A stretch of 64,000 nt of DNA from Gemmatimonadales bacterium (GCA_041741375.1 JBGSKF010000143.1:18633-82632); one strand, 5' to 3'. Positions 31,985 through 49,610 are shown, counted from the first letter of the stretch. Notes: generated by a model not told the origin, from the sequence alone. A program made the numbers and translations.

Positions 31985-32174
31985 ATGCGTCGTATCGTGC
32001 TGTTGACGGGTCTTTTTGGCCATCGGGTTCCTTGGAACCCTGTCCACCCGCACCTCGGCGGCCAGCGGAGGGCAGTACTGGGCTGATCTCTTCGGTTTCC
32101 CTGACTGCGTCTACAGTTGCGGGAACAATTCGGGGCACGACAAGTGCACGTGCTCCGAACCTCTCAACCCGTGA
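31985..32174 (+). CDS. small secreted four-cysteine peptide, readable only across a 1-nt shift in a T5 run
   Basis: aaggagag Shine-Dalgarno 5 nt before ATG 31985 (MRRIVLLTGL...). Dropping one T of 32013-32017 joins it to ...LAIGFLGTLSTRTSAASGGQYWADLFGFPDCVYSCGNNSGHDKCTCSEPLNP, stop at 32172-32174. Confidence 0.35.
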
Positions 32175-32210
32175 CGGTGAGTGCGGGTTGAGGAGTCGAC
32201 CCGCTGGAGT

Positions 32211-32248
32211 GCTTGTCCGGGGGCTGTGCGCATAACCCCCGGACAAGC
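32211..32248 (+). terminator. 13-bp perfect stem hairpin downstream of the small peptide ORF
   Basis: gcttgtccggggg (32211-32223), 12-nt loop, cccccggacaagc (32236-32248). No T-tract. Confidence 0.45.
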
Positions 32249-32367
32249 ATCGTCGTTGGAGAGAGGTTCGGCGGCGAGGTCGCGCCCGGGGGTCGTGTAG
32301 AAGTCCCCAGTGAACATGTAGAAGTTAGTCATCACCCGCCATCCCATGGAGTGACAATTACCTACCT

Positions 32368-33485
32368 ATGAAACAACCACATATCCTTCTGCTCGTCCTG
32401 GCCCTCGTGTCGACTTCTTGTATCGCCCCCTCAGGGTCGGACTCCAACTCCGGATCCGAAGAAGGTGCACCCGCACTCTCTCTCGTTGACTCCACCATTC
32501 TGCTCCTTCCAGACTCGGTACCCTGGGCAGGTTCGTCCATGTGGCGCGGGATGGAAGGAGACGGACCTACCTGAGTGATGTGGCATCGGGCAGGGTGATC
32601 CGGTTCAGCCGCAATGGCAATCTGGAGGCCATCTGGGGAAGGCGAGGATCTGGCCCAGGGGAATACAGGAGCATAGGGATGGTACACCCCCTCCCTGGCG
32701 ATACCCTTGCCGCCGTTTTCGATGAGGCATCCGCTCGTATTGACGTGCTTAGTCTCGATGATGGGGCGCTCCGGCGGACTCTGAGCGTGCCATTCCGAAG
32801 CACAGGAAAACAATGGACTTGGAAGGGAGATCGTGCTGTCTTCAGTCTTCCAGGCAGTCCATCGCTGATCGGAGTGTGGCATGCCGGACAGGACTCAACG
32901 GAGGTGTTGGGGATGGTACCGCCGGAGGTCATGGCGGGCTTGCCAACCTACATGCAGTACGGGCACTTGGAGCTGATCCCGTGGAGCGACGGGTTCCTTG
33001 CCCAGGTGCCCACCATGCCGGGTCTTCACCAGCTCGATGCCGCTGGCCTTGTCGTGGGTCATGTGCCTCTCCCGGCCGTGAAAAGGCGCGGACAGCCAAC
33101 GGACCTCCTGTTGCGCCATCAGGAAAAGGAATCCGCGGGACAACCGTTTGCGTACATCGGATCTGCAGCTGCCACCCTGGGCCATCTTTCCAGCGGAGAG
33201 GTGGCCGTAGTCCAGGTGGATATTGATGTAGAGAACGGCCCGCAGCGACAGGAGTTCACGAACCTGCGCTATTACGTCTCTATCGTCTCGGCCGACCTGC
33301 AACGAACATGTGCCGATGCCCTCGTCCCCTTCACCAGTGACTCTCCATTCCCAATCCCCCACCTGACTGGGGATACCTTGGTTGCTTTGGCTAGGGTAGT
33401 AAGCCCGAACGACAGCGTGCATACCATCGTGTACCGGTACGCGATCAGCTCCAACGGGTGCCGGTGGATGCCGAATCAAAGGTAG
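32368..33485 (+). pseudogene. six-bladed beta-propeller family lipoprotein, frameshifted after the signal peptide
   Basis: Lipoprotein signal MKQPHILLLVLALVSTSC is in ORF 32368..32574. The propeller body (GSGPGEYRSIG...) is in ORF 32541..33485. The frames differ by one nt. Confidence 0.55.
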
Positions 33486-34102
33486 GTCTGGACGGGGACC
33501 CTCCTCAGCGAACTGTTCCCGCCTCCGTCGTGGCGAAGGTGTGATGATGGATGCATGGCGCCATCCTCCCGGTCCAAGGACTCACCACCATCAGCGCCCA
33601 AGGAAGATGCGTCTTGAGTGTACACCGGAGCGTCACTCCGGCGAAGGCCACGTAGCGCAAAGTGCGGTGATGCCGGAAGTGCTGTGCGCTGCGCCCGCAG
33701 ATGCCACTACGCTCGGTCGCCATCCGAATTGCTAGCGGGTGGCGGCCGGGTCGCGTACGAGGCGGATGACCTCCAGGCTCACTCGACCCAGAAGTACGCG
33801 TGCCTTTGGAACCGTGTTGTTGTGATCGCACTCCAGGTATGGCTGGATTGGGAATGGCAATCGACGGGAGGGCTGGGACGCGGAAAGGTGGATGCCACAA
33901 GGAACTGCTGGGCGTCGGTGTACTCCTCTCCGGAGAGCTGGACGCCGCTCATGCGTCGTGGATTGCCAAGGTCTCGTTAGGTCTTGTAGGGGCGGCGACG
34001 GTTCCGTAAGAAACGTTGTATCTTGCCCGGCGGGCAGTGCAATGCGGTCGGCTGTGGGCTGTGTGGCTACCGGACGAGCGCGATGTTCCAAGGAGAGACG
34101 AC

Positions 34103-34940
34103 ATGGGTTGGAAGCGGCACGGTCTTATTGGCCCGATGAACGGCTCTCGATGGGGGGCGGGGACGAGCCTGATGGCGCTGGTTCTGGGCGTCCCTCCGCT
34201 CCATGCCCAGGGAGGTCTGAGAGGCAAGGTGGTTGACTCCGAAGGCGTGCGCCTCCCGGGAGTGGAAGTGGTGCTGCCGGAGGTGGGGCGTCAGGCGATG
34301 ACCGACAGTTCGGGCCTGAACCGCGTCATGGATATTCGAAAAGGCCGGTTCGAGGTCCTGTTCCGGCGGGTGGGGTACCAGCCCCTCCGGTTGCTGGTGA
34401 GTTTCACCGGGGGTTCAGGCGATGCCGTAGTGAATGTCGAGATGTCGCCGGAGGCCGTGGTGTTGCCGGAGGTGGAGACCAAGGCCCGGGGGCCGGAGGA
34501 GGTGCCCGTGAAGCTTCGGGAATGGGCCCGGCGCCGGCAGTTCAACGTGGGCGGGAAGTTCTGGGACGATTCGCTGTTGCGAACCCAGGAGTACAGACAG
34601 CTCCCGGAAGTGCTCCATGCCGTTCCCGGTGTCAGGATCATCCGGGCGATGGGTGGCCGGTATCTGGCCATCGGGGGGGGGGCGGGGAGCGAACGGCGTG
34701 CGAGGGGGTATGGATCCGAGGATTCCACCCGCGTGCTACGTCGAAGTATATCTCGATGGGGCGCGGCTCTCGTCGGCAGGAGTTCCCGTTAATCTCGACA
34801 ATATCCCGGTCCAGCAGATCGCCGCCATGGAGTTGTATCGCTCTGCCTCCGAGATGCCCGTCGAATTCAACTCCCCGGGAGCATCCTGTGGCGTCCTTGC
34901 CATCTGGACCCGGGTGGAAAGTGAGAAGGATGAAGGTTGA
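34103..34940 (+). pseudogene. CarboxypepD_reg plus plug-like secreted protein, interrupted at a G10 tract
   Basis: aaggagag before ATG 34103. N-part is in ORF 34016..34792 (GLRGKVVDSEGVRLPGVEVVL). C-part is in ORF 34617..34940 (CYVEVYLDGARL...CGVLAIWTR). The switch is at the G10 run 34673-34682. Confidence 0.6.
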
Positions 34941-35034
34941 AGGGAGAGGGGGGATCGGGCCCTCGCGATGAGGGGATTGTGGCTATCGCCTTACCGTCCA
35001 CCGCCCATAGCCAAATCGCCGGTAACGGTGGTCC

Positions 35035-35135
35035 CCCCACTCCCCACTCCCTATAGCTCCCTATCGCATATTCCCTACCGCCTACTCCCTACCGCCTACT
35101 CCCTACCGCCTACTCCCTACCGCCTACCCCTACCC
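35035..35135. repeat. CCCTAC-type array including CTACTCCCTACCGC x4
   Basis: ...ttccctaccgcctactccctaccgcctactccctaccgcctactccctaccgcctacccctacccctca. Abuts the ADOP stop codon. Confidence 0.85.
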
Positions 35136-35136
35136 C

Positions 35137-37584
35137 TCACCCGCCCCGCATCACCATCGCCGGATCCACCCGCGCAGCACGCAGCGCCGGAAGCCAGCAC
35201 GCCACGAGCCCCACCGTCACCATTACCAGTGCTACGAGGATCAGTGTCACCGGATCGTGCGGGGCCACGCCGAACAGGAGACCGCGGATGATGCGGGTCG
35301 CGAACAGCGCCCCGGCGATCCCCAGCACCAGGCCGATGCCGAGCAGTGTGCCACCCTCGCGGATCACCATTCCCTGCACCCGGCTCTGGTCGGCGCCCAG
35401 GCTCATCCGGATCCCGATCTCCAGGGTCCGGGCGCTCACCGAGAATGCCAGCACCCCGGCGATGCCGACGGCGGCGATGAGCACCGCCAGGAGTCCGAAG
35501 GCGCCGATGAGGGCGGCGTTCAGGCGGCGGGGCGCCACGCTCTGGCCCTTGATCTCCGACAGGGTCAGCACGTTCTCGATCGGATCCCGGGGGGCGATGT
35601 TCCGCACCAGCCGGGTCGCAGCCGCTCCCAGAGCGGACGCATCCTGCTCGGAGCGGATCACCAGGCCGCCGGCGAACACCACCTCCTGGGCAAAGGGCTG
35701 GAACAGAACGGGGCGTGGCTCGACATCGAGTCCTCCGTCCCGCGTGTCGCCCACCACGCCAACCACCGTGCGCCAGTCGCCCGTCACCGGAATGAATCGC
35801 AGCACGTCCCCGGTCCACGCCACCCGCTGACCGATCGGGTCCCGGTCCCCGAAGAGCCGTTTGCTCAGCGTCTCGTTGAGGATCACCACCAGGGCGCTCC
35901 CCTCGATGTCGGTGGAGGTGAACTCCCGTCCCCGCAGCACCGGGATCCCGGCCGCCCGGAAATACTCGGGACTCGCCGTGCGATACTCGGCGCGCGGGAT
36001 CGCCTCGCCGACGGCCAGGGCCCGCCCTTCCGCCTTCAACTCGAGTTGGAAGTCCGAGGAGCGGAGGGGGATCACCGAACCGACTCCCACGTCGCGCACC
36101 CCGGGGATCGCGGCGATCTCGTACTTCATCCGGTCGTAGAGCGCCCTGGTGGCGTCGTTGTCTCCATCTCCGCCGCTGACCGGCACTTCCATCGTGAGGA
36201 CCTCGCTCTCGCCCCCGGTGAGACCGGTGTCCACCTCCGAGAGTCGGAGCATGGTGCGGGTCAGGAGGCCCGCTCCGGTCAGGAGGATCACGGAGACGGC
36301 GACCTGAGCCACGACAAGCGCGCGTTGGAGCCGTTGGCGGCGCAGGGTGCCGCTGGCGCGCGCCACGCCCTGGGCCATCCAGGTGCCGAGGGTTCCCTCC
36401 CGGGCGAGCCGCGGCGCGAAGGAGAGGAGGAGGGCCACGGCCACGGTCAGCACCAGGGTGAAGCCCAGGACCATGGCGTCGAGCCGGATTTCCCCGGCCC
36501 GGGGAGAAACCCGTTCCGCGAAGGCGATGAGGAGCTGCAACCCGCCCGCGGCCAGTACGAGACCCAGGACGGCGCCACCCAGGGCCAGCACCAGGTTCTC
36601 CACCAGAAGCAGGCGGCGGAGGCGGCCGGCCCCGGCCCCCAGCGCGGCCCGGATCACCAGTTCATGCTCGCGTCGCACCCCGCGCATCAGGGTCAGGTTG
36701 GCGACGTTGGCGGCGGAAATGATCATCACGAAGGCCGCGGCGCCCATCAGGAGCCAGAGGGTCAGGCGCGCGCGCTCGCCGAGCACCTCGTGGAAGGGAG
36801 TGAGGGTGACGCGGTATCCGGACGCGGCATCGTAGGCGTCGGGGTGATCGGCCTGGACCCGGGCGCGGATCGTCTCCACCTCGCTGCGGGCCTGGGGCAG
36901 CGTGGCGCCGGGAGCCAGGCGGGCGATCATCTCCGTCATCCGGTGGGTTCGGCCCGTCACCATCATGGCGCTGGTGTGGTGCTCGCTGATCACCATGTTC
37001 ATCAGCGCATCCATCCGGTTCGGGAAGGTGGGGGCAGGCTCCACCACGCCAACCACCGTCACCGCTCGTCCGTCCACCAGGATCGTCTGTCCGACGATCC
37101 CACTGTCCCCCTGGAACCGCTTCAACCAGTACTCGTGGGTCAGGACCATCACGGGAGGCACGGCGGTGCCGTCGTCTCCGTCGGTCAGCAGCCGGCCCAG
37201 GGCCGGAGCGAGGCCCATGACCTGGAAATAGTTTCCGGTGACGAGCCCGACGGTCATCCGGACCGCGTCGTTGTCCCCCTGGAGGGTGTAGGTCATGGGG
37301 GAGTACTCGGCGATCCCCCCAAGGGTACTGGCGCCTTCCCGGAAGTCGTCGATTTCGGGCACGGAGAAGAGCACGTTCTCTCCGCCCGGGCCTTCGACCG
37401 ACTGGCGGAGGTAGACCAGCCGGTCGCCGTCGCGATGGGGAAGGGGACGGAGGAGCACGCCGCGCACCACGCTGAAGATGGCGGTGTTGGCGCCGATGCC
37501 GAGCCCGAGCGTCAGGACCACGGTGAGGGTGAAGCCGTGGGCCTTGGCGAGGGAGCGCAGGGAGAAGCGGAGATCAGCGAGCAT
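35137..37584 (-). CDS. ADOP-family duplicated MacB/FtsX-like ABC permease
   Basis: ORF 35137..37584 (815 aa). MLADLRFSLRSLAKAHGFTLTVVLTLGLGIGANTAIFSVV..., two FtsX modules. Confidence 0.9.
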   Translation of the reverse strand: MLADLRFSLRSLAKAHGFTLTVVLTLGLGIGANTAIFSVVRGVLLRPLPHRDGDRLVYLRQSVEGPGGENVLFSVPEIDDFREGASTLGGIAEYSPMTYTLQGDNDAVRMTVGLVTGNYFQVMGLAPALGRLLTDGDDGTAVPPVMVLTHEYWLKRFQGDSGIVGQTILVDGRAVTVVGVVEPAPTFPNRMDALMNMVISEHHTSAMMVTGRTHRMTEMIARLAPGATLPQARSEVETIRARVQADHPDAYDAASGYRVTLTPFHEVLGERARLTLWLLMGAAAFVMIISAANVANLTLMRGVRREHELVIRAALGAGAGRLRRLLLVENLVLALGGAVLGLVLAAGGLQLLIAFAERVSPRAGEIRLDAMVLGFTLVLTVAVALLLSFAPRLAREGTLGTWMAQGVARASGTLRRQRLQRALVVAQVAVSVILLTGAGLLTRTMLRLSEVDTGLTGGESEVLTMEVPVSGGDGDNDATRALYDRMKYEIAAIPGVRDVGVGSVIPLRSSDFQLELKAEGRALAVGEAIPRAEYRTASPEYFRAAGIPVLRGREFTSTDIEGSALVVILNETLSKRLFGDRDPIGQRVAWTGDVLRFIPVTGDWRTVVGVVGDTRDGGLDVEPRPVLFQPFAQEVVFAGGLVIRSEQDASALGAAATRLVRNIAPRDPIENVLTLSEIKGQSVAPRRLNAALIGAFGLLAVLIAAVGIAGVLAFSVSARTLEIGIRMSLGADQSRVQGMVIREGGTLLGIGLVLGIAGALFATRIIRGLLFGVAPHDPVTLILVALVMVTVGLVACWLPALRAARVDPAMVMRGG

Positions 37585-37932
37585 CCGATACTCCTTTCAG
37601 TGGTCGGGGATGGGGTCAGGTCCTCAGCGAAACTAATTACCCGAAATGGGTTTCGGGCTTTTAAGTCGAGGCCCGGCCGCGGAGCGGCCGAAGAGCATGG
37701 CCCACGGCTTTAGCCGTGGGAGCAGGAGGCATCGACACTTTCCCGCGCCCCGTTGGGGCGCAAGACAACGGGGCGCGAATGGGACACACCCTGCGCCCGT
37801 TCGCCGACGCTCTCCCTGGCCAAGGTCATGCACACCTCAAGGGTGGCTCGTCGTGGTCGGTCGACGATGAGCTGCGAGGCCCACGTGGACTGACTTGCGC
37901 CCCTACGGGGCGCCACGCTCCTTTCCTGTCCG

Positions 37933-38190
37933 TCAGCCTTTGCCCCACCTCGCCACCAGCCCCTGCAACGTCGCCGAGGCCGTGCTCTCGTCATGGGGCA
38001 CCAGGAGGTACGTCCACGGCTTCTCAGCATATTCCGCCGCAAACACGCTCGCATGCCCACACCACTCCACCGCCGCTTGGGCCTTGGCCTGGACCTCGGG
38101 ATCCTCCATCTCATTGGCCGCCTTCACCTCGACCAGGAGTCCTCGTTCCCCCGCTTCCATCGCGAAGTTGGGTTCGTATTGACACTCCAT
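37933..38190 (-). pseudogene. remnant of a type III res gene (C-terminal about 80 codons only)
   Basis: ORF 37933..38190 (...LLVEVKAANEMEDPEVQAKAQAAVEWCGHASVFAAEYAEKPWTYLLVPHDESTASATLQGLVARWGKG) parallels the C-terminus of the intact res at 40212. Confidence 0.75.
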
Positions 38191-38385
38191 GCCGCCAGCG
38201 TGCTACTTGGCCGTTCGTGCAGCCTCAGCGAACACTCCTGATCGGCTGGGATCATGAAGACTGTACACCGCTCGGGAGCGGTGGCGCCTGAGGCCGTGCT
38301 TGAAGATGTGCTCTCGAACCCAGGCCCGCGGTGAAAGCTCAGGACGCCGTTGAGCCTTGCTGAAGTGTAACCCGTCGGAGACCGG

Positions 38386-39129
38386 CTATGGGCGAGGCCA
38401 GCCATCCGGATCGTGGGGGTCGAATGGACGTTTCATCGCCACAAGATACGGGTGGTCCTTGGCCCAAAATGATGCTTCGACCATGCGAGCCACAGGGAGG
38501 ATGAGGACGCTTTCAGCCCCTGCCTCCAGCAGGCATCCGGCCGAGCTGAGTGCCGTGGCTCCCGTCACCCACGTATCTTCGATCAAGACGATGCGCTTTC
38601 CGGTAGTCTTCTCCGACGCCCGGAATGCGGAGGGCTTGTACTCCTTGCGCCCGAGGGTTTCCGTCCTCTTGAACCTCACTGCCTCCACGAGCGCGTCCGC
38701 GAGCGGTCTGACGCGTGCCAGCGCCAACCGGAGTGGCTGGTGTTCGAAATCGACGCCGCGCTTTGAAGGAACTACAGTGATGAAGGACGGATCGCCACCC
38801 AGGGCGCTACGAATCTTCCCCTGGTGTGTCATCGTGTATTCGTATACGAGCGATGCGATGAGAGCGCCGTGCTCCTTCTGAAGCGTCTTGTAGGTTTGGA
38901 GTCTGGTGTACCAGGGACTCGGGTTGATGGCGGCGGTAATCGGCACGACACACTTCTGGAAAACCTCCGGAACCCCCGCCTTCCGGAAGAGCATGTGACA
39001 CGCGTGGCACATCTCGTACTCGTTCACCGGCCCGAGGCAGCAGCGGCAGACAGAGCCGGAGTTATCGAGTTTCGGAACGCTGCCGAGGATGCCGGCTGCT
39101 TGCGCCAGAATTTCTCGGGTTGTCGGCAT
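38386..39129 (-). CDS. ComF-type phosphoribosyltransferase with N-terminal zinc ribbon (ShosT-like)
   Basis: ORF 38386..39129. CRCC...CHAC zinc ribbon. PRTase motif IVLIEDTWVTGATAL. Confidence 0.75.
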   Translation of the reverse strand: MPTTREILAQAAGILGSVPKLDNSGSVCRCCLGPVNEYEMCHACHMLFRKAGVPEVFQKCVVPITAAINPSPWYTRLQTYKTLQKEHGALIASLVYEYTMTHQGKIRSALGGDPSFITVVPSKRGVDFEHQPLRLALARVRPLADALVEAVRFKRTETLGRKEYKPSAFRASEKTTGKRIVLIEDTWVTGATALSSAGCLLEAGAESVLILPVARMVEASFWAKDHPYLVAMKRPFDPHDPDGWPRP

Positions 39130-39135
39130 CCGGAA

Positions 39136-40071
39136 TCAAACGCCGACGGTGATCGGTCCCCGTAGTGCCACATCAAGGCGTTCAATCACATCGGCTGCCG
39201 ATGTGATCTCAACAGCCCTGGTTCCGAACGCCCCCTCGGTCACGTACTTCCTGGCCCACTCCCGAGTCCTCACCAGCTCGGAATGCAGGAACACGGTACG
39301 GCCATGCTGCAGCGCAACACGGGCTTGAATTCGTGCCCCGGATGTGTCTGAGGCCTCAACGACGATGGTCGCGAGTGACAGTCCGGACATCACGACGTTC
39401 CGCATCGGAAACGTCCACTTGGTCGGAGGTTGGTCCGGTGTGAACTGCGATATCAGCGTGCCTCCGGAAGCGAGGATCTCCTCCGCGAGGGTTGCATTCT
39501 CCGCAGGGTAGAGGCGTTTGAGCCCGCTGCCGAGCACCGCACAGGTTACTCCTCCAGCCTGCAGGGTGGCACGGTGAGCTGCCGTGTCTATCCCAACAGC
39601 CAGGCCGGAGAGGATGACAAAGCCATCACTGACGAGTTGTGAAGTGATCTCCGCCGCGATTCCCAGTGCCTTCGGTCCTGCGGCACGCGCCCCGACGATG
39701 GACACAGACCGTGTTCCCAAGGCAGCAGGCAACACGCCCCGGATGAAGAGGAGCGGTGGGCGGTTGAAGACGTCGTGAAGTGGCTCGGGGTATCCACTAT
39801 CCAGCACCGTCACCGGTTCCAGTCCCTGCGCACGCCAGACGGCGAGATCCTCTCTGGCCCGTTGCAGGTCCTCCGCTGTCACGGCGCCTATGAACTGATG
39901 TACTGGCTTTGGCCAGGCAAATAACCGATCCTCCTCGGCAAGTTCGACCAGACGCAACGCCGAACCAGTATGGCCGATCAGTGCCCCGAGGTGCTCCTGG
40001 GGAACAACCCGTGCACGCTGGAGCGCCAAGGTGGCCGCAGTCTCGTCAAGTGGGAAGTCGGCCGCTACCAT
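39136..40071 (-). CDS. DprA/Smf (SLOG) family protein (ShosA-like)
   Basis: ORF 39136..40230 from ATG 40071 (ggagga Shine-Dalgarno). SIVGARAAG...SGLAVGIDTAAHRATLQAGGVTCAVLGSGLKRLYPAEN. Confidence 0.8.
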   Translation of the reverse strand: MVAADFPLDETAATLALQRARVVPQEHLGALIGHTGSALRLVELAEEDRLFAWPKPVHQFIGAVTAEDLQRAREDLAVWRAQGLEPVTVLDSGYPEPLHDVFNRPPLLFIRGVLPAALGTRSVSIVGARAAGPKALGIAAEITSQLVSDGFVILSGLAVGIDTAAHRATLQAGGVTCAVLGSGLKRLYPAENATLAEEILASGGTLISQFTPDQPPTKWTFPMRNVVMSGLSLATIVVEASDTSGARIQARVALQHGRTVFLHSELVRTREWARKYVTEGAFGTRAVEITSAADVIERLDVALRGPITVGV

Positions 40072-40211
40072 CGTTCCTCCGTGCTGGCGACTCGGGTGGC
40101 CCTGTCCATGGGGTATGAAGCAATGCACCCGAATATATACCGAAATAGCCGCTTCCGAAAGCTCCACCCTTCTGCCCCAACCCGAAACATACGAGGACTC
40201 CTTGGCCCCAT

Positions 40212-42896
40212 CTACTCCCCTCTCCCCCACTTCGCCACCAGCCCCTGCAACGTCGCCGAGGCCGTGATCTCGTCATGGGGCACCAGGAGGTAGGTCCACG
40301 GCTTCTCGCCATATCCCGCCGCAAACACGCTCGCATGCCCGCACCACTCCACCGCCGCCCGGGCCTTGGCCTGGACCTCGGGATCCTCCATCTCATTCGC
40401 CGCCTTCACCTCGATCAGCAGCTTCCGGTCGGTGGTTTCCGCAACGAAATCCGGTTCGTAGGACTGGGACTGGCCGTGGCCCCAGAAGATCCGCGGCGGC
40501 GGCCCGGCGAGCCGAGCCCACTTCACCACCTCCGGCGCGTCATCGAGCAGAACCGCCATCCGCCGCTCGGCGTCCGAATCGAACCGGGCCTCCCTGTAGA
40601 TGGACTTCCGGAAGTGCCCGAACCGCATCCCCCGGATCCGGCTCGGCGCCTGCACCGCAAACCGGACATCGCGCACCTTCTCCGCCTGGTCCGCCGTGCT
40701 CGCCTGGGGGGGAAGCTGCTCGAATCCCTTGCTGATCCGCGCCTCGTAGCCCACCGCATCCTCCCAGGCATGTTCCGCGAGCTGCGCATGCACCAGCTCC
40801 CCAATCTGGCGCTCGTAGAACTGGAGCACGTTCTTCACCGCGTCATCGTCCGGCAGGTAGCTCCGGAGCCGCGCCACCACCTGCCCCGCCAGCTTGTACA
40901 GCAGCTCGGAGTGGCTGTCATACGACACGTCGGGCCGGCCCACCAATGACCGCACCACGAAGTTCTCCAACCGCGGCTCATCCATCCGCGACGTGACACC
41001 CGAGAGCGTTTCCCGTGTGCTTTCGGAGAGGTGCTGAATCAGAATGTCGTTGTCCACCGGCTGGAAGTTGATCTTCGAGACGTCGAGCTCGAAGTCGCGG
41101 AATCCCGTTCGTACCTCCCCCTTCGGCACCACGAGGATCCGCGGGATGTCGATGTTGATCAGGCTGTAGATTTCCACCGCTTTCGACACCGGCGCGTCGA
41201 GATCCTCGGTGGAGCGGAGCGGGAGTTCCGCCTGAATTCCGGCGAGATGTTCCCGAACAGCCTGGACCAGACGGCTTCGCGGTTCATCATCGAGGAGGGA
41301 GCGGGTGGAGGGATAGTGCGCAAAGGCTGGGTGGTGAATCACCTCCAACGTGGCCCGTGCCACCTGGATGTCCTCCTCCGAGGTGAACACCGGCGGGGGA
41401 GCCTCCGGTGCGCCGTCGGTCACGGGGGGAGGGAGGAACATTGCCTGCGCGGGAGACGGCACCACCACCGCCACCCGGCCCACGGGGAGCGATTCCTCGT
41501 TCCCGATGTATACCGGCACATACCGGATCGCCGAGTCGGAACGGTTGGCCTCGTCGATGATCTCCTGGAACCGGTCGTGCGCCACGATGGTGAGCCGGTC
41601 CACCGCCGAGACACCGGTGCGCCGGCCGTAGGGGAGCCGGAGTCCCCGTCCGATGGACTGCTCCACCAGAGTGCGGCTTGTGGCGGTGCGGAGCGGCACG
41701 ATGGTGTAGAGGTTGGTGACGTCCCATCCCTCCTTCAGCATGTTCACGTGAATCACGATCTCGGTCGGTTCGGCGGGGTCCTCCACCTTGAGGAGCCGCT
41801 CGACGTTCTCCTCCCTCTCGTCCCCGCGGAGCGTCGAGTGCACCGTAATGACCTTGGCCGCATACTGGCCGCCGAAGAACGCCTCTCCCTTGATCCGCGC
41901 CTCGAGTTCCGCGGCGTGGGTCGTGTCCTTTGCCACCACGAGCATGAACGGCTTGACCTGCGGCTTCCCCTCCCGGATGGCGTAGGTCTGCAGCTCGGCC
42001 TTCACCGCCTCATGGATCCGGACCCCGTCCTCCAGCTTGAGCAGTTCCAGTTGCTCCTCGGTATACACCCCGGCGTCGAAGTTCTCCCGGGTGGCCACGG
42101 CAGGCTCCTTCACGAAGCCGTCGCGGAGAGCGTGGGTCAAGGGGTAGGAATAGATCACGTTCTTGAACGGCACCGGGGGCCGGGCGCCCCGTTCGATCTG
42201 CGGCGTGGCGGTGACCTCGAGCCCCAGGACCGGCTTGAGCTCATTGATGGCGTTCATTCCGGCGGCGGCGCGGTAGCGGTGGGACTCATCCATGAGCAGC
42301 ACGAGATCGGGGAGCTTGGAGAGGTACTCGAAGTAGCTCTCCCCGATGTACTCGTTGAGTCGCTTGACCCGGGGGGCGCTCCCACCCCGTACCTCGGTGT
42401 TGATCTTGGAGATGTTGAAGAGGTTGATGTTCACATCCCCCTCGCCGAAGAGATCGCCGCGCAGCGCCCGGCCGCTCTCCCAGTTGTCCCCGGTGATGAG
42501 TTCCGGCGGGTGGGTGGCGAACTCGGCGAGCCCCTGGAACACGTATTTCGGGGTGTTCGGGGTGAAGTCCGCGATCAGCTTGTTGTAGATGGTGAGGTTG
42601 GGGGCCAGCACGAAGAAGTGCCGGATCCCCTTGACCCGCCGGAGCCAGGCGATGAAGGCGCCCATGAGCCGAGTCTTGCCGACCCCGGTGGCGAGGGCGA
42701 AGCAGAGGGAGGGGAAGTCGCGTTCGAAGTCCTGCACCGAGGGGTACGCGGCGCTGACCCGTTCCAAGGCCGCGGCGACGTCCTGGTTCTTGGTGAGGGG
42801 GATCAGTTCGGTCGCGGCGGCGAGGATCTCCAGCGCCTCCCGCTGGGGCGCGCGGAGCGAGAGCCGTCCGGCCACTGCCGCGACTTCCCGGCTCAT
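40212..42896 (-). CDS. res: type III restriction enzyme Res subunit (DEAD/DEAH helicase-nuclease)
   Basis: ORF 40212..42896. Motif I ATGVGKT, motif II LLMDESHRY, helicase C region. 4-nt overlap with mod. Confidence 0.85.
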   Translation of the reverse strand: MSREVAAVAGRLSLRAPQREALEILAAATELIPLTKNQDVAAALERVSAAYPSVQDFERDFPSLCFALATGVGKTRLMGAFIAWLRRVKGIRHFFVLAPNLTIYNKLIADFTPNTPKYVFQGLAEFATHPPELITGDNWESGRALRGDLFGEGDVNINLFNISKINTEVRGGSAPRVKRLNEYIGESYFEYLSKLPDLVLLMDESHRYRAAAGMNAINELKPVLGLEVTATPQIERGARPPVPFKNVIYSYPLTHALRDGFVKEPAVATRENFDAGVYTEEQLELLKLEDGVRIHEAVKAELQTYAIREGKPQVKPFMLVVAKDTTHAAELEARIKGEAFFGGQYAAKVITVHSTLRGDEREENVERLLKVEDPAEPTEIVIHVNMLKEGWDVTNLYTIVPLRTATSRTLVEQSIGRGLRLPYGRRTGVSAVDRLTIVAHDRFQEIIDEANRSDSAIRYVPVYIGNEESLPVGRVAVVVPSPAQAMFLPPPVTDGAPEAPPPVFTSEEDIQVARATLEVIHHPAFAHYPSTRSLLDDEPRSRLVQAVREHLAGIQAELPLRSTEDLDAPVSKAVEIYSLINIDIPRILVVPKGEVRTGFRDFELDVSKINFQPVDNDILIQHLSESTRETLSGVTSRMDEPRLENFVVRSLVGRPDVSYDSHSELLYKLAGQVVARLRSYLPDDDAVKNVLQFYERQIGELVHAQLAEHAWEDAVGYEARISKGFEQLPPQASTADQAEKVRDVRFAVQAPSRIRGMRFGHFRKSIYREARFDSDAERRMAVLLDDAPEVVKWARLAGPPPRIFWGHGQSQSYEPDFVAETTDRKLLIEVKAANEMEDPEVQAKARAAVEWCGHASVFAAGYGEKPWTYLLVPHDEITASATLQGLVAKWGRGE

Positions 42897-44515
42897 GTTT
42901 CGTTCTCCGCGAAGATCTCCGCCTGGTCCGGAACGACCCGCGGGGCATCGGGGAGGTCCCGGATCTCCAGGGAGTAGTCATCCCGGCCCCACTCGCACTT
43001 GGAGAGCACCGCCTGGGGAATCTTCTTGAGGGTCAGGTTGGGCCATTGGCTCGCCTTCCCCTTGAACGCGCCGCAGCAGACCAGCAGCGACCGCTCGGGC
43101 CCCACCTCCTCGCTCAACTGGTCGAGTTGCGCCTTGGTGAGGGTCTGGGTGGTGACGTAGAGGAAGTCCCGTTCGGTGGACTGCCCCTGCTGCCACCACC
43201 GCTCCTCGCTCGGCGCGTAGCGGAACCCTTCCAGCTTGGCCACCGCCTCTGCAAGCATCGCGGCGTTGTATTCCTTCGACACCACCCAGTTGCCCCAGCG
43301 GTCCTGTTCCATGAGGGAGGGGGCGAGCCGGTAGTAGCGGAACCCACCGCCGCCCTTCCACTTCACCGCCTCGGTAATTCCGCCCGGATCCTCGCCGTCG
43401 ATCACCTTGCGGAGGCGGGGGATGATGTGGGTGTGACAGTGTTCTCCGAGCTCGATCATGATCCAGCGGCGTCCCATCTTGTGGGCCACGGCGCCGGTGG
43501 TGCCGGAACCGGCGAAGGAGTCGAGGACGAGGTCGCCACGATTCGATGCGATCTGAAGTATTCGGGAAATGAGCCTCTCTGGCTTGGGGGTAAGAAACGC
43601 CTCCTCTTTGCCAAACAGCTCGTGGATCTCCTTCCGGGCTTCGTCCGTATGCCCGACCTCCTCATGTGGCCACCATGTCCACGGCACCATTCCTTCGACT
43701 TCGTCGAGAAAGCGGATCACATTGGGCTGGCTGTTATTGTCCTTGCCAAAGTAGATACGACCCGTGGCGAGTAGTTTCTGGTACTCAGTCTCGACCATTG
43801 ACCAACATCGACCCTCCGGCGGCAGATGCTCTTTCCCGCCGGGTGCTGTGATTACATACATCTGATTCGGTCGATACCCCTGTGCTGTCATCGGGGTCGG
43901 CCGCCAGCGCCCACGAATGTTGCCATCGGGATTCTTGTATACCCTCGCCTGTGCCTCGGTTATCGGAACTCGATTCCTTGTCGCCTTAAACCTGCTGGTG
44001 TCCCTGGCGTACACCAAGACATAGTCGTGCGCGTCCCCGATTGCTTCTCGGTTTTCGCGCGAATAGCGCTTTTGCCAAATGATGTTGGCGATGAACTGGC
44101 TTCGTCCGAAGATCTCATCACACAACACCTTCAGGTAGTGCGCCTCGTTGTCGTCGATGGTGATCCAGAGGGAACCGTCCTCGGAGAGGAGGTTCCGGAT
44201 GATCTCCAGCCGGTCCCGCATCAGGGAGAGCCAGAGGGAGTGTTCCAGGCCGTCGTCGTAGTGGGTGAAGGCGCTGCCGGTATTGTAGGGCGGGTCGATG
44301 AAGACGCACTTCACCTTGCCGGTGAATTCCTGTTCCAGGGCCTTGAGGGCCAGGAGATTGTCGCCGAAGATGAGGCGGTTGTCGAAGAGGTCGTGGTCGG
44401 TGACCCGGTGGGGGGCGTGATGGGACTTGGCCGGGTCCTCGATGAGGATCCGGGGTTCGAGGCGGGGGCGCTGGCCCTTGCCGACCCAGGTGAGTTCAAG
44501 GCGGGTGCGAGCCAT
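42893..44515 (-). CDS. mod: type III DNA methyltransferase Mod subunit (beta-class N6A/N4C)
   Basis: ORF 42893..44515. Catalytic VFIDPPYNTG precedes the AdoMet motif VLDSFAGSGTTG. Confidence 0.9.
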   Translation of the reverse strand: MARTRLELTWVGKGQRPRLEPRILIEDPAKSHHAPHRVTDHDLFDNRLIFGDNLLALKALEQEFTGKVKCVFIDPPYNTGSAFTHYDDGLEHSLWLSLMRDRLEIIRNLLSEDGSLWITIDDNEAHYLKVLCDEIFGRSQFIANIIWQKRYSRENREAIGDAHDYVLVYARDTSRFKATRNRVPITEAQARVYKNPDGNIRGRWRPTPMTAQGYRPNQMYVITAPGGKEHLPPEGRCWSMVETEYQKLLATGRIYFGKDNNSQPNVIRFLDEVEGMVPWTWWPHEEVGHTDEARKEIHELFGKEEAFLTPKPERLISRILQIASNRGDLVLDSFAGSGTTGAVAHKMGRRWIMIELGEHCHTHIIPRLRKVIDGEDPGGITEAVKWKGGGGFRYYRLAPSLMEQDRWGNWVVSKEYNAAMLAEAVAKLEGFRYAPSEERWWQQGQSTERDFLYVTTQTLTKAQLDQLSEEVGPERSLLVCCGAFKGKASQWPNLTLKKIPQAVLSKCEWGRDDYSLEIRDLPDAPRVVPDQAEIFAENET

Positions 44516-44551
44516 ATTGGCGTTCCTTATGTGACCCGTGGGTGAGGCCCG

Positions 44552-45058
44552 TCAGGACGTCGCCAAGTCGCCTGGGGGTTCCAGAGGAAGGGACCCCTGC
44601 TCGACGATCGGTTTGCGGATTGGTATCCCCACCAGCCTTCCCATCTGGAGCAGCTTGGTGTCATAGGTGAGAAACTCGTCAACATCCAACTCCAGAGCCG
44701 AAGCAAGGTGAATGGCGTCGGGTGGCCTCAGGTTTTGTCCATTCGTCAGTGCCTGACGAATGAGACCCCGGGCCTCACGAGCCAGGGAGGGATGCAGCTC
44801 AATCATCTTCACCGGTGATCCCGGTACCCATAGCGCATCAATACTCTGTTCGACTTCCGGGCTCAGTGTGCGACTGTCCTTCTCTTCCTTGGCGAAAGCC
44901 ACTTCTGTCATGGAGAGAACGGAGGTGGCAATCCGGCGCTTCCCGGCGTGGGCCTGCTCAAGCAGTTCCCGCAAGTCGGCGGTGCGGTCGCGGGCCCCCT
45001 CGATATAGGAGAGGAAGAGACAGGCATCCCAATATGAGGCCGGGACATCACCAGGCAT
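44552..45058 (-). CDS. PIN-domain protein
   Basis: ORF 44552..45058. WDACLFLSYIEG...SVLSMTEV...PDAIHLASAL...FLTYD. 11-nt overlap with the upstream gene. Confidence 0.75.
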   Translation of the reverse strand: MPGDVPASYWDACLFLSYIEGARDRTADLRELLEQAHAGKRRIATSVLSMTEVAFAKEEKDSRTLSPEVEQSIDALWVPGSPVKMIELHPSLAREARGLIRQALTNGQNLRPPDAIHLASALELDVDEFLTYDTKLLQMGRLVGIPIRKPIVEQGSLPLEPPGDLATS

Positions 45059-45830
45059 CGCGCACCAGCCTTATCGCCTCCTCTGCGGAAATCGTATTCG
45101 CGGCCGGAGCGATACCCATTGCCCGTCGCCAGCCTTCACGCTCCCCGTCCGCAACGAGCGACACCCTGGTCACGTTCCGGACCGCAAGCGGTCGTCCCGT
45201 TTCAGGATCGCGACTCACCAGGCCGACCACTTCGGCACGATGACCCCAGATATCCCGCATCGTCTCCTCGTACCCCGGACGGAGGTAGCACGATACCGCC
45301 TTGTCGTGCAGTTCATCGAACAGGGTGAAACGAAGCCCTCCACGATGGCTCAGCGTCTCAACCCGGCCGGTAACAGTACCAATCGCTGGCTGCAGTGCGA
45401 CGGTCGGAACAGCAGGCGATTCCCTGACGAGTTGCAGGTGACCCCTCGGCCGAACAATCACCTCGCGGTACTCCGTCTCAAACCGAATGGAAGGAACCGT
45501 ACCACTCTGGATCAGGCGCAGAAAGGTCTTGGATGCGCTTCGGACCCGCGGCGTGAGTTGCTCCACAGTATCATTTCGGATCGCCTCCCCCGTGGATTCG
45601 TAGGCTCGCACGACCTGATCCACTTGGCTCGCGGGCCCGATGCCACGAATCGTTGCCACCGCACTGCTCGTGTACAGGCTGTCCACGACCCACTGGACGC
45701 TGCTCAGGGGGTGTTCTCCCCCTACCTCGGTGGCAAGCGCAGCAACGAGCGATTCAAGCCCTGCCATGGCGTCGGAGAACGCCTTCAGGGAGACCTGACC
45801 GTCGACGGCCAGCGTGAGGGTGTCCGCCAT
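45048..45830 (-). CDS. unknown protein coupled to PIN (antitoxin-like C-tail)
   Basis: ORF 45048..45992. ATG 45830 is preceded by aggaaggg; alternative starts reach 45992. No recognised domain. The C-terminus ISAEEAIRLVRDAW resembles VapB-type tails. Confidence 0.5.
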   Translation of the reverse strand: MADTLTLAVDGQVSLKAFSDAMAGLESLVAALATEVGGEHPLSSVQWVVDSLYTSSAVATIRGIGPASQVDQVVRAYESTGEAIRNDTVEQLTPRVRSASKTFLRLIQSGTVPSIRFETEYREVIVRPRGHLQLVRESPAVPTVALQPAIGTVTGRVETLSHRGGLRFTLFDELHDKAVSCYLRPGYEETMRDIWGHRAEVVGLVSRDPETGRPLAVRNVTRVSLVADGEREGWRRAMGIAPAANTISAEEAIRLVRDAW

Positions 45831-46282
45831 GTATGCCCTTCCTGCCGGGAACCGTGGGATTGAGCCAAGCCGCCGAGAAATGGGGTGCCGATGGCGGATG
45901 GCGCCGCTGATCAAAATATACAGCGTTTCGGCGAGATCATGCTCTTCCTGGGGCATGCTCAGCGAACTTCGAGCAGCGTCGTAAACGGCCACCGCGCTGG
46001 TCGTTGGCGGCCCAAGTGCGTTCGAGGCGCTGTCCGGCCATCAGGGAATGATTACCTCGGGGTGTGACAATGGGAACCGTGGTTCGGCCGCCGGCTCCTC
46101 ATTCGTTGCTCCCCTTCCTCCACGGATTTCTTGTTTCCCCGGTCTCCCTCGTGCTCTTTCTGGGCGTTATCGGCATTGAGAGTCCGGCCTTCAGCGTTCA
46201 GGACGGTTTCTCCTCCAGGCTGTAATGGTCAAGTCCCAGTCTGACGGTCGGCCGCCCTTCCTGGCAAACGTGGGTAGGCTGG

Positions 46283-46917
46283 CTAGTCAAAGCAATCCGA
46301 GAGCCACCGGCTGTCGATGCGGATGAACGAGTTCACCGCGCTCGCCAGCTGCGCTCCCGGACCGGCGGAAACCGCGTAGACGCGCTTGCCGTGACGCCGT
46401 ACCGCCTCGACCGCTGGTGTGAAATCGCCGTCCGCTGAGAGTAGGTAGGCCGAATCGAATTGATCTCGTTCGGCCATGACGACCATGTCGACGGCCAACA
46501 TCACGTCGACAGCCTTCTCTACGAAGACGATCGGATTGGCATTGTGAGACGCGAGTCTCAGACAGCGCGCGATAAACTACAGGGTCGAGTCGCACCGGAA
46601 GCGTGCTCAGCAGTTGACGAAGCTCTTTCGCAACCGGTTGGGTGCGTGCCTGGATTCCAGTCGGCCGAAATGAATCGAGACCCTCGCATCTGAGGCCTTC
46701 AAAGCATCTACGAACCTCCGTTGCTTTGCGTACAGGTCAGGGTTTCCTTGCTGCTTTACCTCCCGATGTAGTAGCGAATCCCGGACAAGCTCCTTGGTCC
46801 GAGCAGCTTTGCGGCAAGTTTCGTGTAGCTCAACTGGAACAGATCGCTGAGGCCGATGTCCTTCAGCGAGTGGTACCAATTGTTGCCGTCGATGAAGAGG
46901 ACCGCGCGACCCGGCAT
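46283..46917 (-). pseudogene. NYN/LabA-like domain gene with at least three frameshifts
   Basis: Own translation gives four segments in different frames. (1) MPGRAVLFIDGNNWYHSLKDIGLSDLFQLSYTKLAAKLLG...YYIGR, ending in a stop. (2) VKQQGNPDLYAKQRRFVDALKASDARVSIHFGRLE. (3) AKELRQLLSTLPVRLDP. (4) NPIVFVEKAVDVMLAVDMV...SADGDFTPAVEAVRRHGKRVY. Confidence 0.7.
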
Positions 46918-47371
46918 GCAGGAGAGTCCTGGGGAAGAAGAACCCCGGCGTGTGGCCTTGCGACCAGACCCCGGGGGGATAAAGCCGATCTCCCGTGAGA
47001 GACCGTAGTTGAAAGATCGGCCAGCGGCTGCAAACTGTCAAGTTGCAGCACCAGCCAACCGTCAAGTGTTGCTTGACAGTTGCGTCCCGGCCGAGCTCAC
47101 CATTCTCATAAATGCTTTGTGCATAAACACTTACATTTCCGATTCTTCGGGTTTCGCGTGGGCCCCGGGGCTCTTGCCCTGGGCTCGGCGGGCGGGGGGC
47201 CGTTCACAAGGCCGGGTGCTCCTCGCTGCTCCCGGTGGTGTGACTCACCTCACTCGGCCGAGCAAGGGGCGTCAGCCAGTGCCGTGGGGCGGTTCTCGGA
47301 TGCCCAGAATCCCGTCATGCCGTGAACGAGCGTGTTCCGGGACCCGGTTCCGCCCTCATCGCCACCGGTTG

Positions 47372-47584
47372 TCAGTCCCAGTCGATACCATCGATGATGC
47401 CGGAAAAGTCGGCTCGTTGCCTCACGATGCCGATGAATTTGTGCGTTGGCTGGAACTCGGGTTCTTCATGCCAGTCGAATTCACGTTTTCGTCCGTCGAT
47501 CACCGGTGGCGCGGAGGACGCCCGACGGGGTGAGTCGACCGAAAGCGTGACGGTTCCGGGTACGTGGCTCTCGGTGTCGTTCAT
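47372..47584 (-). CDS. small hypothetical protein (second gene of a coupled pair)
   Basis: ORF 47372..47584. ATGA overlap with the upstream ORF. No recognised domain. Confidence 0.4.
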   Translation of the reverse strand: MNDTESHVPGTVTLSVDSPRRASSAPPVIDGRKREFDWHEEPEFQPTHKFIGIVRQRADFSGIIDGIDWD

Positions 47585-47931
47585 AACTGTGAAGTATCGG
47601 GTTCCGGGGGTGTTCGCGCAACCCAGTCGCCAAGCGCCCCGACCCGGCGAAGGGCGGCAAGCACCTCGGGAGGAAGTTCGTCACCCAGTGCATAAGATCC
47701 ATGGCTGCTCTCATGGCCGTACAGACCGGCGAGGTTCAACGTTCCATCGCGCCCCACCGCGATGGCGAGGACACGTCGGGGACCGAAATCCCACTCGAAA
47801 CGGAACTCGCCGTCCTGGTCGATCGCCACATAGGGCCGGGCAACGCATGCAGGGAGGGAACGCACGAAGCGCCACGCGCATGGCATGGTGCCGGGACCAA
47901 CCAAGGGCGTATCGTTGGGCGGCGCGGTCAT
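47581..47931 (-). CDS. hypothetical protein (first gene of a coupled pair)
   Basis: ORF 47581..48120. ATG candidates at 47931, 48045 and 48120. Core sequence YVAIDQDGEFRFEWDFGPRRVLAIAVGRDGTLNLAGLYG. Confidence 0.4.
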   Translation of the reverse strand: MTAPPNDTPLVGPGTMPCAWRFVRSLPACVARPYVAIDQDGEFRFEWDFGPRRVLAIAVGRDGTLNLAGLYGHESSHGSYALGDELPPEVLAALRRVGALGDWVARTPPEPDTSQL

Positions 47932-48254
47932 TCCCCGTACTCGTGACTGGAGGGATGCCTTCAAGGTAACGGGAACGACCGAGTCGAGCAAGCGGGAAAT
48001 GAGAACATAAACTGTTTTGTTGCAAGACGTTACGATGGTTGGCATCGGATCCGCTCCTGTCGAGCCACGAGAATGGCGCCTCAGTTGTGACGTGATCCCT
48101 AAAGTGTGGTTGCGTAGCACGAATCATGCTGTGAAGGATAGGAGATAGCACTTTCAGGGGACATTGCGCACATTTTCGGCACAAAAAGCACATTGCGGTT
48201 GCTATATTGTTCTCCAGGTGCTGGATGTCACTCTCCCGAAGCCCAGGAAGAACG

Positions 48255-49610
48255 ATGCTCCTCTCCTTTCGCTTCAAGAACTTCCGCTCGTTCAGGGACG
48301 AACAGGAATTCTCGATGGTGGCGAGCAACCTGAAGGGCCCCACCGAGCCACTCATCGAGACCGGCCGGAAAGACCTGAAGGTTCTTCCCGTGGCGGCGGT
48401 CTATGGGGCGAACGCCTCCGGGAAAACGAATTTCCTCAATGCGCTCGATTTCATGGCCTGGGCCGTCCGCGAATCCTTTCGTTCCTGGACGCCGGGCGGA
48501 GGAATTCCTGTTGAGCAGTTCAAGCTCGATACCGAGGGTGGCGTGCAGGCGATGCGTTTCGAGGTTGACCTGCTCCTCGACGCGGTTCGCTTCCAGTACG
48601 GCTTCCGCCTCGACCCCTCGCGCATTCTCGAAGAGTGGCTTTATGCGTTTCCGGAAGGGCGGCGTCAGCTCTGGTTCAGCCGTGAGCACGGTGACAGGAC
48701 CGAGCAGTTCAAGTTCGGGAAGAACCTGACCGGTCCGAACCAGTCGGTTCGTGAGGTGACGCGAGAGAACAGCCTCTTCCTCTCTGCAGCGGCGCAGAAC
48801 AACCATGGACGGGTTTTTCCAGTTTACCATTGGTTCGCGCATTACCTGGATGTCATCTGCGGCAGCCGGGCTGACTTGCTTCGTGATTCGACCAGGTGCT
48901 CCCTGGGCTCAGGATCACGCCAGCCGCTGATGGAGTTTCTGGCGGCTGCGGACCCAGGAATCACTAACGTCGAGTTCGAGGACGAGCCGGCAGGTATCCA
49001 GCGTTTGTTCAGATTCCCTGCCACCATTCACGAGGCATCTCGCCCGCACCATCTGCGGGCGGTAATCAACTCTGCCCCATCTCCGGGGGAGGTATCACCG
49101 AAGGGCTCCGGACTCCGCCCGGGCAGGACCACCCTTCCCGGGGTTCCGAGAATCACCTTTTCGCACTCCACAGGAGTGGGTGGGGCGGAGGTCAAGTTCG
49201 GGATCGAGGAGGAGTCTGAGGGAACCCGCGCCATCCTGGCCCTCGCGGTTCCGATCGTCCTCTGTCTGGAGCGAGGTAGTGTTCTCCTGGTTGACGAGCT
49301 GGAGGCGAGTCTCCACCCCTTGCTCGCCCGGGAGGTGATCCGGCTCTTCAGCCGGCGGGAGTCGAACCCGCGAGGGGCGCAGCTCATCTTCAACACACAC
49401 GATACGAATCTGCTCGATCCCGACCTCCTGCGGCGCGATCAGATCTGGTTCTGTGAGAAGGATCGTGAGGGAGCATCCAGGCTCTATCCACTCTCGGACT
49501 TTCGGCCGAGAAGAATGGAAAACGTGGAGCGTGGCTACCTGCAGGGCCGTTACGGGGCCATCCCGTTTCTCGGAGACCTGATTCCCTCGCTGGGTGAAAG
49601 CAGCGAATGA
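48255..49610 (+). CDS. AAA_21/ABC-type ATPase (AbiLi-like)
   Basis: ORF 48207..49610 from ATG 48255. MLLSFRFKNFRSFRDEQEF, Walker A GANASGKTN, Walker B LLVDELEASLHP, FNTHD. Confidence 0.85.
   Translation: MLLSFRFKNFRSFRDEQEFSMVASNLKGPTEPLIETGRKDLKVLPVAAVYGANASGKTNFLNALDFMAWAVRESFRSWTPGGGIPVEQFKLDTEGGVQAMRFEVDLLLDAVRFQYGFRLDPSRILEEWLYAFPEGRRQLWFSREHGDRTEQFKFGKNLTGPNQSVREVTRENSLFLSAAAQNNHGRVFPVYHWFAHYLDVICGSRADLLRDSTRCSLGSGSRQPLMEFLAAADPGITNVEFEDEPAGIQRLFRFPATIHEASRPHHLRAVINSAPSPGEVSPKGSGLRPGRTTLPGVPRITFSHSTGVGGAEVKFGIEEESEGTRAILALAVPIVLCLERGSVLLVDELEASLHPLLAREVIRLFSRRESNPRGAQLIFNTHDTNLLDPDLLRRDQIWFCEKDREGASRLYPLSDFRPRRMENVERGYLQGRYGAIPFLGDLIPSLGESSE

Follow-up and report, generated by a model that had tools for sequence, protein, structure and literature searches.

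Two copies of a type III res gene end around a ShosTA-like cassette in a Gemmatimonadales bacterium, a possible scar of homologous recombination

The 3' end of res, the restriction gene of a type III restriction-modification (R-M) system, is present twice in the stretch of DNA analysed here, which comprises 64,000 nucleotides (nt) of a Gemmatimonadales bacterium (GCA_041741375.1 JBGSKF010000143.1:18633-82632) and is called the window in the following. The two copies enclose a cassette resembling ShosTA, a toxin-antitoxin defence system in which the DprA-like ShosA is encoded adjacent to the phosphoribosyltransferase-like ShosT (PMC11961720, PMC12961424). All relevant genes are located on the minus strand, in the order mod, res, spacer, ShosA, ShosT-like gene, trailer, res fragment, REP (repetitive extragenic palindromic)-like hairpins and MacB/FtsX gene. 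Four relatives cover this hotspot, namely L093 (GCA_039794085.1), whose core is 93% nt identical to the window, and L099, L100 and L101; related res loci were available in the Logan contigs L083-L089 (DRR4385xx), in L097 (Logan, SRR21758761) and in L098. The features of the locus are listed below, with lengths of proteins in amino acids (aa).

42893-44515, minus strand: mod, type III methyltransferase, 540 aa (Pfam N6_N4_Mtase, 7e-48; PADLOC MTase_III, 2.8e-213)
40212-42896, minus strand: res, complete type III restriction subunit, 894 aa (Pfam ResIII, 1.9e-19, and Helicase_C; PADLOC REase_III, 1.5e-221)
40219-40460, minus strand: right (R) repeat copy, the last 242 nt of res minus the final 7 nt, with a high-identity core at 40219-40417
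40072-40218, minus strand: junction block, with the last three, non-native res codons and stop (GRGE-stop), motif X and the ShosA upstream region
39136-40071, minus strand: ShosA-like DprA-family protein, 311 aa (PADLOC ShosA, 3e-59; Pfam DNA_processg_A, 4.8e-57)
38386-39129, minus strand: ShosT-like phosphoribosyltransferase, 247 aa (weak matches only: PADLOC ShosT, 0.0037; Pfam Pribosyltran, 0.015; PDB 2p1z, 0.0036)
38191-38385, minus strand: trailer, 195 nt after ShosT, its first ~110 nt weakly similar to the L083 trailer; absent from L093
38136-38190, minus strand: seg1', the 5' part of the res remnant, from a different res allele (YEPNFAMEAGERGLLV), with PN in place of the catalytic PD; a relic in L093 (15915-15986) is 84% identical
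37937-38135, minus strand: seg2, the left (L) repeat core, 93.5% identical to the resident res end
37923-37936, minus strand: native-type res stop (..WGKG-stop) and ~12 nt of 3' flank, as at the end of the L097 res, which has no cassette
37640-37922: REP-like hairpin cluster, with inverted repeats 37745-37767/37891-37913, a hairpin at 37701-37720 and homology to L099 1893-2372
35137-37584, minus strand: MacB/FtsX-type ABC permease, 815 aa (Pfam MacB_PCD, FtsX), with 92-93% nt identity in L093, L099 and L100

The mod gene overlaps the start of res by 4 nt. The res translation shows a helicase region and, at its C-terminal end, the nuclease motif PD...EVK (YEPDF...LIEVKA), and the pair has the sequence make-up of a type III R-M system, with an N6/N4 methyltransferase Mod encoded upstream of a Res that combines a superfamily 2 (SF2) helicase with a PD-(D/E)xK nuclease. 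A spacer of 140 nt separates res from ShosA, which starts with an ATG at 40071, is preceded by GGAGGA and encodes a protein for which an identical 311-aa entry exists in the database (P0001). The ShosT-like gene starts 6 nt past the ShosA stop; the weak matches of its product all fall over the PRPP (phosphoribosyl pyrophosphate)-loop region, residues ~144-219, and that to Pribosyltran stays below the gathering score. Of the ShosTA-like cassette with phosphoribosyltransferase and DprA genes that was originally predicted from the DNA alone, ShosA is a clear homologue (3e-59), and ShosT is only weakly recognisable (0.0037). Judged by the encoded proteins, the pair resembles ShosTA in the adjacency of a DprA-like ShosA and a putative phosphoribosyltransferase-like ShosT, and differs from the described systems in that the A gene precedes the T gene and ShosT matches the models weakly. 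Upstream of ShosA, the near-palindrome TTCGGTATATATTCGG (40129-40144) is identical in the window, L093 and L083 while the spacer around it has diverged; as a candidate, it could be the operator or the promoter of the cassette. GTATnTTCG-like repeats occur near this near-palindrome.

In a repeat search, a direct repeat of 242 nt was found, window 37937-38178 against 40219-40460, with 211 identical positions (87%) and a start-to-start spacing of 2282 nt. It is the single outstanding direct repeat of the region, in which the same search gave no other repeat longer than 37 nt. The core, 37937-38135 against 40219-40417, is aligned in gapless register with 186 of 199 positions identical (93.5%); in the next 46 nt this figure is 25, a sharp step to about 54-67% identity. 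Exact blocks of 37 and 35 nt are common to both copies. The alignment confirms the ~190-nt direct match (37945-38135 and 40225-40415) reported earlier, as well as the weaker similarity further out, where YEPDF in res corresponds to YEPNF in the other copy. The repeat structure is not an assembly artefact, because window 38086-40261 recurs with 100% identity in L081 (SRR28170468), a Logan assembly made independently, and unitigs of L081 and of L082 (SRR28170467) contain both cassette junctions at 100% identity and end within both repeat copies, exactly where 31-mers become shared. A simple tandem duplication was also ruled out, the cassette being present in a single copy and the flanks of the repeat being different.

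The left copy belongs to an open reading frame (ORF) of 85 codons (37933-38190, minus strand), which matches positions 785-862 of the 871 positions of PADLOC REase_III (E 1.1e-17) and is 83% identical to res residues 813-893. It is, as had been predicted, a stranded res C-terminus without a helicase, with ShosT directly upstream of the fragment, and with 85 codons only and PD replaced by PN it does not qualify as a functional Res. In a three-way alignment, its first about 55-60 nt (seg1') are ~54-67% identical to the res genes of the window and of L083, which differ from each other there at a single position; seg1' departs from all four close res alleles, and these are near-identical to one another over this part. 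The following 199 nt (seg2) are 93.5% identical to the window res, and L083 is ~15% different from both. By this alignment, the remnant is a mosaic of two segments with opposite affinities. Besides the remnant and the window res, only the L093 res fragment contains the string ASVFAAxYxEKPWTYLLVPHDE, which is absent from L097, L098 and L083. Seg2 contains 11 R/L differences, of which at least six occur in the remnant alone and about 6-7 are non-synonymous; at site 40315, the remnant has the state of L097, L098 and L083, and a derived base is common to the two R copies, those of the window and of L093. The private, non-synonymous changes and the catalytic Asp-to-Asn replacement fit a pseudogene, and to judge from its sequence the remnant is a decaying one without a function of its own. 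The displacement of an older res allele, one of two options originally considered, agrees with the first ~55-70 nt, in which PD is changed to PN and which recur in L093 at 84% identity, but not with the rest of the remnant.

The two copies differ at their very ends. The remnant ends in TGGGGCAAAGGCTGACGGACAGGA (..WGKG-stop, followed by CGGACAGGA), which matches the end of the L097 res (..KWGKG-stop, TGATGACGGACAGGA), whereas the working res ends in ..KWGRGE-stop, its homology to L097 breaking off at 40219, 7 nt short of the stop. Therefore, it is the stranded copy which holds the native end of the gene, and the working gene has a foreign tail belonging to the ShosTA block. The other original option, an insertion of the cassette that duplicated the res 3' end, gains support from the stranded native stop with its 12-nt flank and from the departure of res from L097 at 40219, and is incomplete as it stood. 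At the res/ShosA junction lies motif X (~55 nt; window 40226-40170), which consists of GGGAGAGGGGAGTAGAT, 18 nt and GTATGTTTC (general form GTATGTTyC). It precedes ShosA also in L093 and is common to L093 and L083. L093 and L099 have a related form in the intergenic DNA that precedes the MacB/FtsX gene, and the motif is found also in genomes and positions without res. Outside the window, its positions are L093:10438 and 16032 and L099:4972. Going by this distribution, motif X could be what an earlier res-ShosTA occupant left behind, or else the junction sequence could derive from it.

Different cargo is found behind res in the related alleles. L083-L089 are colinear with window 42365-38382 and encode Res, ShosA and ShosT with aa identities of 89, 83 and 79%, the L083 res being 88% nt identical to that of the window. 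In L097, mod-res is 91% nt identical to window 43599-40219 and ShosTA is absent; in L097 and L098, res is followed by a GmrSD-like gene, and the colinearity of the two extends through it. Over 2139 shared columns, the window res is 90.6% identical to L097, 88.1% to L083 and 87.1% to L098. It is thus nearest to an allele with the GmrSD-like gene, L097, and not to L083 with ShosTA, and the type of cargo therefore does not track res similarity. All four res alleles (window, L083, L097, L098) diverge within the last few res codons, and this comparative evidence points to the end of this res family as a recurrent joint for alternative defence cargo. The earlier suggestion that the res end acts as a handle for swapping cargo gains indirect support from ShosTA or GmrSD-like genes at the last codons of res genes of 87-91% identity. 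This support is limited by 80 more distant res loci from GTDB species representatives (<=68% aa identity), in which neither a second res end nor ShosTA was found. ShosTA relatives at ~60% identity are located in unrelated contexts without res, and the cassette is therefore self-contained. No type III res was present beside ShosA relatives in 33 JGI metagenome loci (<=58% identical), and the coupling of the pair to type III R-M is restricted to this small clade. The seg1' DNA pattern had 0 matches in JGI metagenomes, and in viral contigs there were 0 matches to ShosA and to a seg2 pattern. As for a breakpoint within res, the sites informative between L097 and L083 are intermixed (110:57 upstream against 32:30 in the last 480 nt), which is suggestive only.

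The trailer behind ShosT has no homology to L093 or to res, and its match to L083 is weak only (score 25 against a shuffle maximum of 28). All seven Logan contigs L083-L089 end exactly 97 nt past the ShosT stop, whereas their other ends differ, which implies a branch of the assembly graph, caused by a repeat or a strain polymorphism, at the downstream edge of the cassette there too. In mod, the central part (window 43600-44102) has no nucleotide match to L097, the flanks are 91% identical and the Mod proteins share 73% aa identity overall; this pattern suggests that the central part is probably a swapped target-recognition domain, and hence of another specificity.

We interpret the direct repeat, tentatively and with somewhat less than even confidence, as a scar that homologous recombination left within the final ~200 nt of res, in the simplest case by single-crossover insertion of a unit of ~2.28 kb. 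The working res is followed by the foreign three-codon tail, the ShosA upstream region, ShosA, ShosT, the 195-nt trailer and ~55 nt of another res allele; then come the last 200 nt of res itself, stranded after the ShosTA block with the original stop and 12 nt of native 3' flank. The recombination junction lies at the seg1'/seg2 boundary. We infer that a single crossover in seg2 is the only single event giving this order, in which a block of foreign tail, motif X, ShosA, ShosT, trailer and seg1' is set between a res ending in seg1-seg2 and a second seg2 with native tail and flank. It would have been a RecA-type single crossover (Campbell-type integration) in seg2, between a native-ended res and a circular or circularly permuted unit of ~2.28 kb, which would have carried ShosTA together with a res 3' fragment from an earlier host allele, and integration in this manner would need no recombinase or transposase. 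Pfam and PADLOC scans found no recombinase, integrase, excisionase or transposase genes between the repeats, ShosA and ShosT being the only genes there, and the repeat search gave no terminal inverted repeats linking the cassette ends; in the wider island there was no integrase among the scanned ORFs, the scan having covered part of them. A transposon or insertion sequence (IS) and an integron-like cassette were ruled out because terminal inverted repeats and a recombinase or transposase are lacking and because the duplication of 199-242 nt is not short. A simulated crossover in the 37-nt block deletes exactly 2282 nt and leaves an intact res of 893 aa. Since the copies share the exact 37- and 35-nt blocks, homologous recombination alone should suffice for the cassette to be acquired and lost, and its loss by recombination between these blocks is plausible from the sequence.

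Several observations weigh against an origin of the repeat by cassette insertion. In L093 (10001-10441), the first 104 codons of the Fic gene of the island are fused to the last 45 codons (145 nt) of res, giving a 146-aa chimera (P0122). The fusion corresponds to a deletion of ~15 kb at a few bases of microhomology, the window equivalents being 55728-55366 and 40356-40212. ShosA and ShosT are intact behind the res stump and 97.8% identical to the window. Directly after the ShosT stop follow 3.6 kb with the native ankyrin gene, a gene for AraC and one of 378 aa, and next to them a 73-nt homologue of seg1' (84% identical, also with PN), which starts within ~10-40 nt of the point where seg1' starts in the window. 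This relic is internally deleted and has an old-looking res tail, ~69% identical over 45 nt, which ends in GRGE-stop and motif X. A segment of the seg1' type is thus found near the same point in L093, where it stands after a different gene and 3.6 kb from ShosT and has the GRGE-stop-X tail, which suggests that seg1' may have long been resident as a relic at the edge of the hotspot, and may not have been imported with the cassette. The 378-aa gene upstream of the relic was considered as the body of the old res; no similarity was found. Moreover, the res-ShosA junction is shared by the window, L083 and L093 and therefore predates the repeat of the window genome, and the crossover point cannot be placed within seg2, where almost all differences are private to L. 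The comparison of related genomes with and without the cassette that had been recommended yielded an empty hotspot (L099-L101) and cassette-free res genes (L097, L098), but no empty site with the exact allele; neither such a site nor a circle or a second bracketed example was found in the 80 GTDB res loci, JGI metagenomes and viral contigs.

The observations in L093 are also the basis of a different sequence of events, which is possible but somewhat less likely in our view. A relic consisting of seg1', seg2, the old GRGE-stop end and motif X would have been located beside the permease gene in the common ancestor of the window genome and L093, and DNA of a sister strain would later have overwritten it from seg2 onwards by homologous recombination, with crossovers in the relic's seg2 and in the core permease gene; the donor would have been a res of the resident type with its native tail, directly at the hotspot edge and without ShosTA. 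Consistent with this are the occurrence of seg1' (84%) at the same hotspot edge of L093 together with the old-looking tail (~69% over 45 nt), and a lack of homology between the window and L093 over the ~320 nt from the remnant to the FtsX gene, despite 93% identity in the flanking core. Identity of the two genomes reaches 97.8% in the ShosTA region compared with 93% in the core, and recombination among these lineages therefore occurs. However, an unobserved donor allele that combines a VFAA-type seg2 with an L097-type tail beside the same REP cluster is required, and an earlier event which placed ShosTA between res and the relic is still needed, so that for the window alone this course is less parsimonious than insertion. 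Common to both accounts is a homologous crossover within the final 200 nt of res.

Intrachromosomal gene conversion, in which the middle 200 nt of an old, diverged remnant were overwritten by the neighbouring working res, would explain the sharp identity step at seg1'/seg2 with two copies 2.3 kb apart in direct orientation. It is nevertheless improbable, because the last codons of the remnant, its stop and its 12-nt flank match L097 and not the neighbouring res, and because the remnant keeps the L097/L098/L083 state at 40315, where the R copies of the window and L093 share the derived base. The present R copy was not the conversion donor, as the tail and flank of the remnant are absent from the working res. 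Site-specific integration of an element that carries a replacement 3' end, in the manner of phage 21 or e14 in icd, with the repeats as attL and attR, would give the same topology, i.e., a target kept intact by an end from the element, with its original end left beyond the element; in view of the lack of integrase, excisionase and transposase genes between the repeats and of terminal inverted repeats, and of a repeat that is 200 nt of plain homology and not a short core, we consider it very improbable. Equally hard to credit is a functional small protein, such as a regulator or a decoy derived from the Res nuclease domain, whose selection maintains the repeat: the ORF is open and begins with ATG, and the source record lists it as a protein (P0121), but its catalytic Asp is replaced, its changes relative to res are mostly non-synonymous, its L093 counterpart is internally deleted, no Shine-Dalgarno-like sequence is evident and a search of 5.8 billion proteins gave no homologous short proteins beyond the ORF itself and a chimera.

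With insertion by homologous recombination retained as the preferred reading, the question arises whether the inserted DNA moves as such. ShosTA, the trailer and a ~250-nt res 3' fragment may form a recombinase-free mobile unit, which would exist as a 2.28-kb circle and would be re-inserted in a RecA-dependent manner into type III res genes with similar ends, perhaps assisted by the DprA fold of ShosA. The DprA fold is a single-stranded-DNA-binding, RecA-loading one. We regard such a unit as unlikely, and the locus is not evidence for a dedicated new mobile element; it is a single bracketed example, and the order of events is ambiguous. Were the unit real, the conserved end of a restriction gene would be a portable docking site for defence cargo.

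Orphan modules of Rhs and CdiA genes are 3' fragments stranded downstream of acquired DNA, which lack the 5' part and keep homology to the main gene. The remnant in the window is likewise a displaced 3' fragment, with 199 nt at 93.5% identity to the main gene. Such orphan (displaced) modules are known from Rhs and contact-dependent inhibition (CDI) loci (PMC3967940). Unlike in these loci, the acquired DNA in the window is a separate two-gene defence operon and not an alternative C-terminus with its immunity gene, the Res protein is essentially unchanged (last three codons only), and a single displaced fragment is present, which is decaying. In the case of phage 21 and e14 in icd and of islands in tRNA genes, the target gene is kept intact by an element-supplied end, and the original end is located at the other side as a direct repeat. 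The window shares with these integrase-driven islands the duplicated target 3' end as flanking direct repeats, but has neither an integrase nor a short att core, and its repeat of 200 nt at 93.5% identity flanks an element of 2.3 kb. In defence-island hotspots, cargo is turned over between conserved flanking genes, and accessory genes can ride on R-M operons, e.g., rlo and prr in type I loci. The variable region of the window, between an abhydrolase gene and the MacB/FtsX gene, with different defence content in sister genomes, corresponds to such a hotspot, and the direct attachment of a defence cassette to an R-M operon resembles the restriction-linked ORFs. What distinguishes it from the usual hotspot is an inner breakpoint inside the coding 3' end of res that left a duplicated gene end behind, and the joining of alternative cargos (ShosTA and GmrSD-like) at the last res codons.

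Defence islands turn over fast, and their molecular joints are rarely visible. Here, a joint is readable at the nucleotide level: the crossover fell within the final 200 nt of a restriction gene, whose displaced end has been preserved, and among the sister genomes are states with an empty hotspot, with a deletion of 15 kb and with other cargo at this junction. Should the pattern be general, conserved ends of R-M genes would be sites at which ordinary homologous recombination adds and removes accessory defence operons, without dedicated mobility genes; at present it stands as a single, well-documented locus.

The hotspot is bounded on the remnant side by the MacB/FtsX permease gene and on the other side by the abhydrolase gene, both belonging to the core, and the REP-like hairpin cluster between the remnant and the permease gene marks its right edge. 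By its permease, the organism belongs to the Gemmatimonadota. REP-like hairpins (e.g., CCCACGGCTTTAGCCGTGGG and GCGCCCCGTTGGGGCGC) occur at both edges of the island (window 37640-37922 and 55743-55989); they are mutually adjacent in the island-free L099 (1893-2372) and are found at a contig end in L097 (10109-10160). L099, L100 and L101, whose permeases have 96-97% aa identity, have an ankyrin-repeat gene, an intergenic region and the permease gene at the hotspot, and R-M genes, ShosTA and a res fragment are absent from it in all three. The variable region from the abhydrolase to the permease gene comprises 4 kb in L099 compared with 18.7 kb in the window (37623-56374). A 22-nt string in L099 resembling the res tail, upstream of the ankyrin gene, scored no better than shuffles.

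The remainder of the island (window 44552-55679) is a run of defence-type genes:

54513-55679: SoFic-like Fic protein
51628-54516: DrmD-like SNF2 helicase
50520-51050: HTH_17 protein
48207-50254: AbiLi/AbiLii-like pair of AAA_21 and RloB proteins
44552-45058: PIN protein

Beyond the permease gene follows a second variable region (window 27589-35143, ~7.5 kb) of lower G+C content, which encodes CarboxypepD_reg-domain proteins; it is absent from L093 and L100, where the abhydrolase gene directly follows the permease gene. A tandem duplication (window 24568-25081 and 25586-26060; period ~1 kb, 96-99% identity) holds a pair of small ORFs (137 aa and 105-121 aa), and L093 and L100 match both copies. 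Finally, the heptanucleotide TCATTGA is repeated 10 times at 9336-9406, and a related array is located just past the permease gene in L100.

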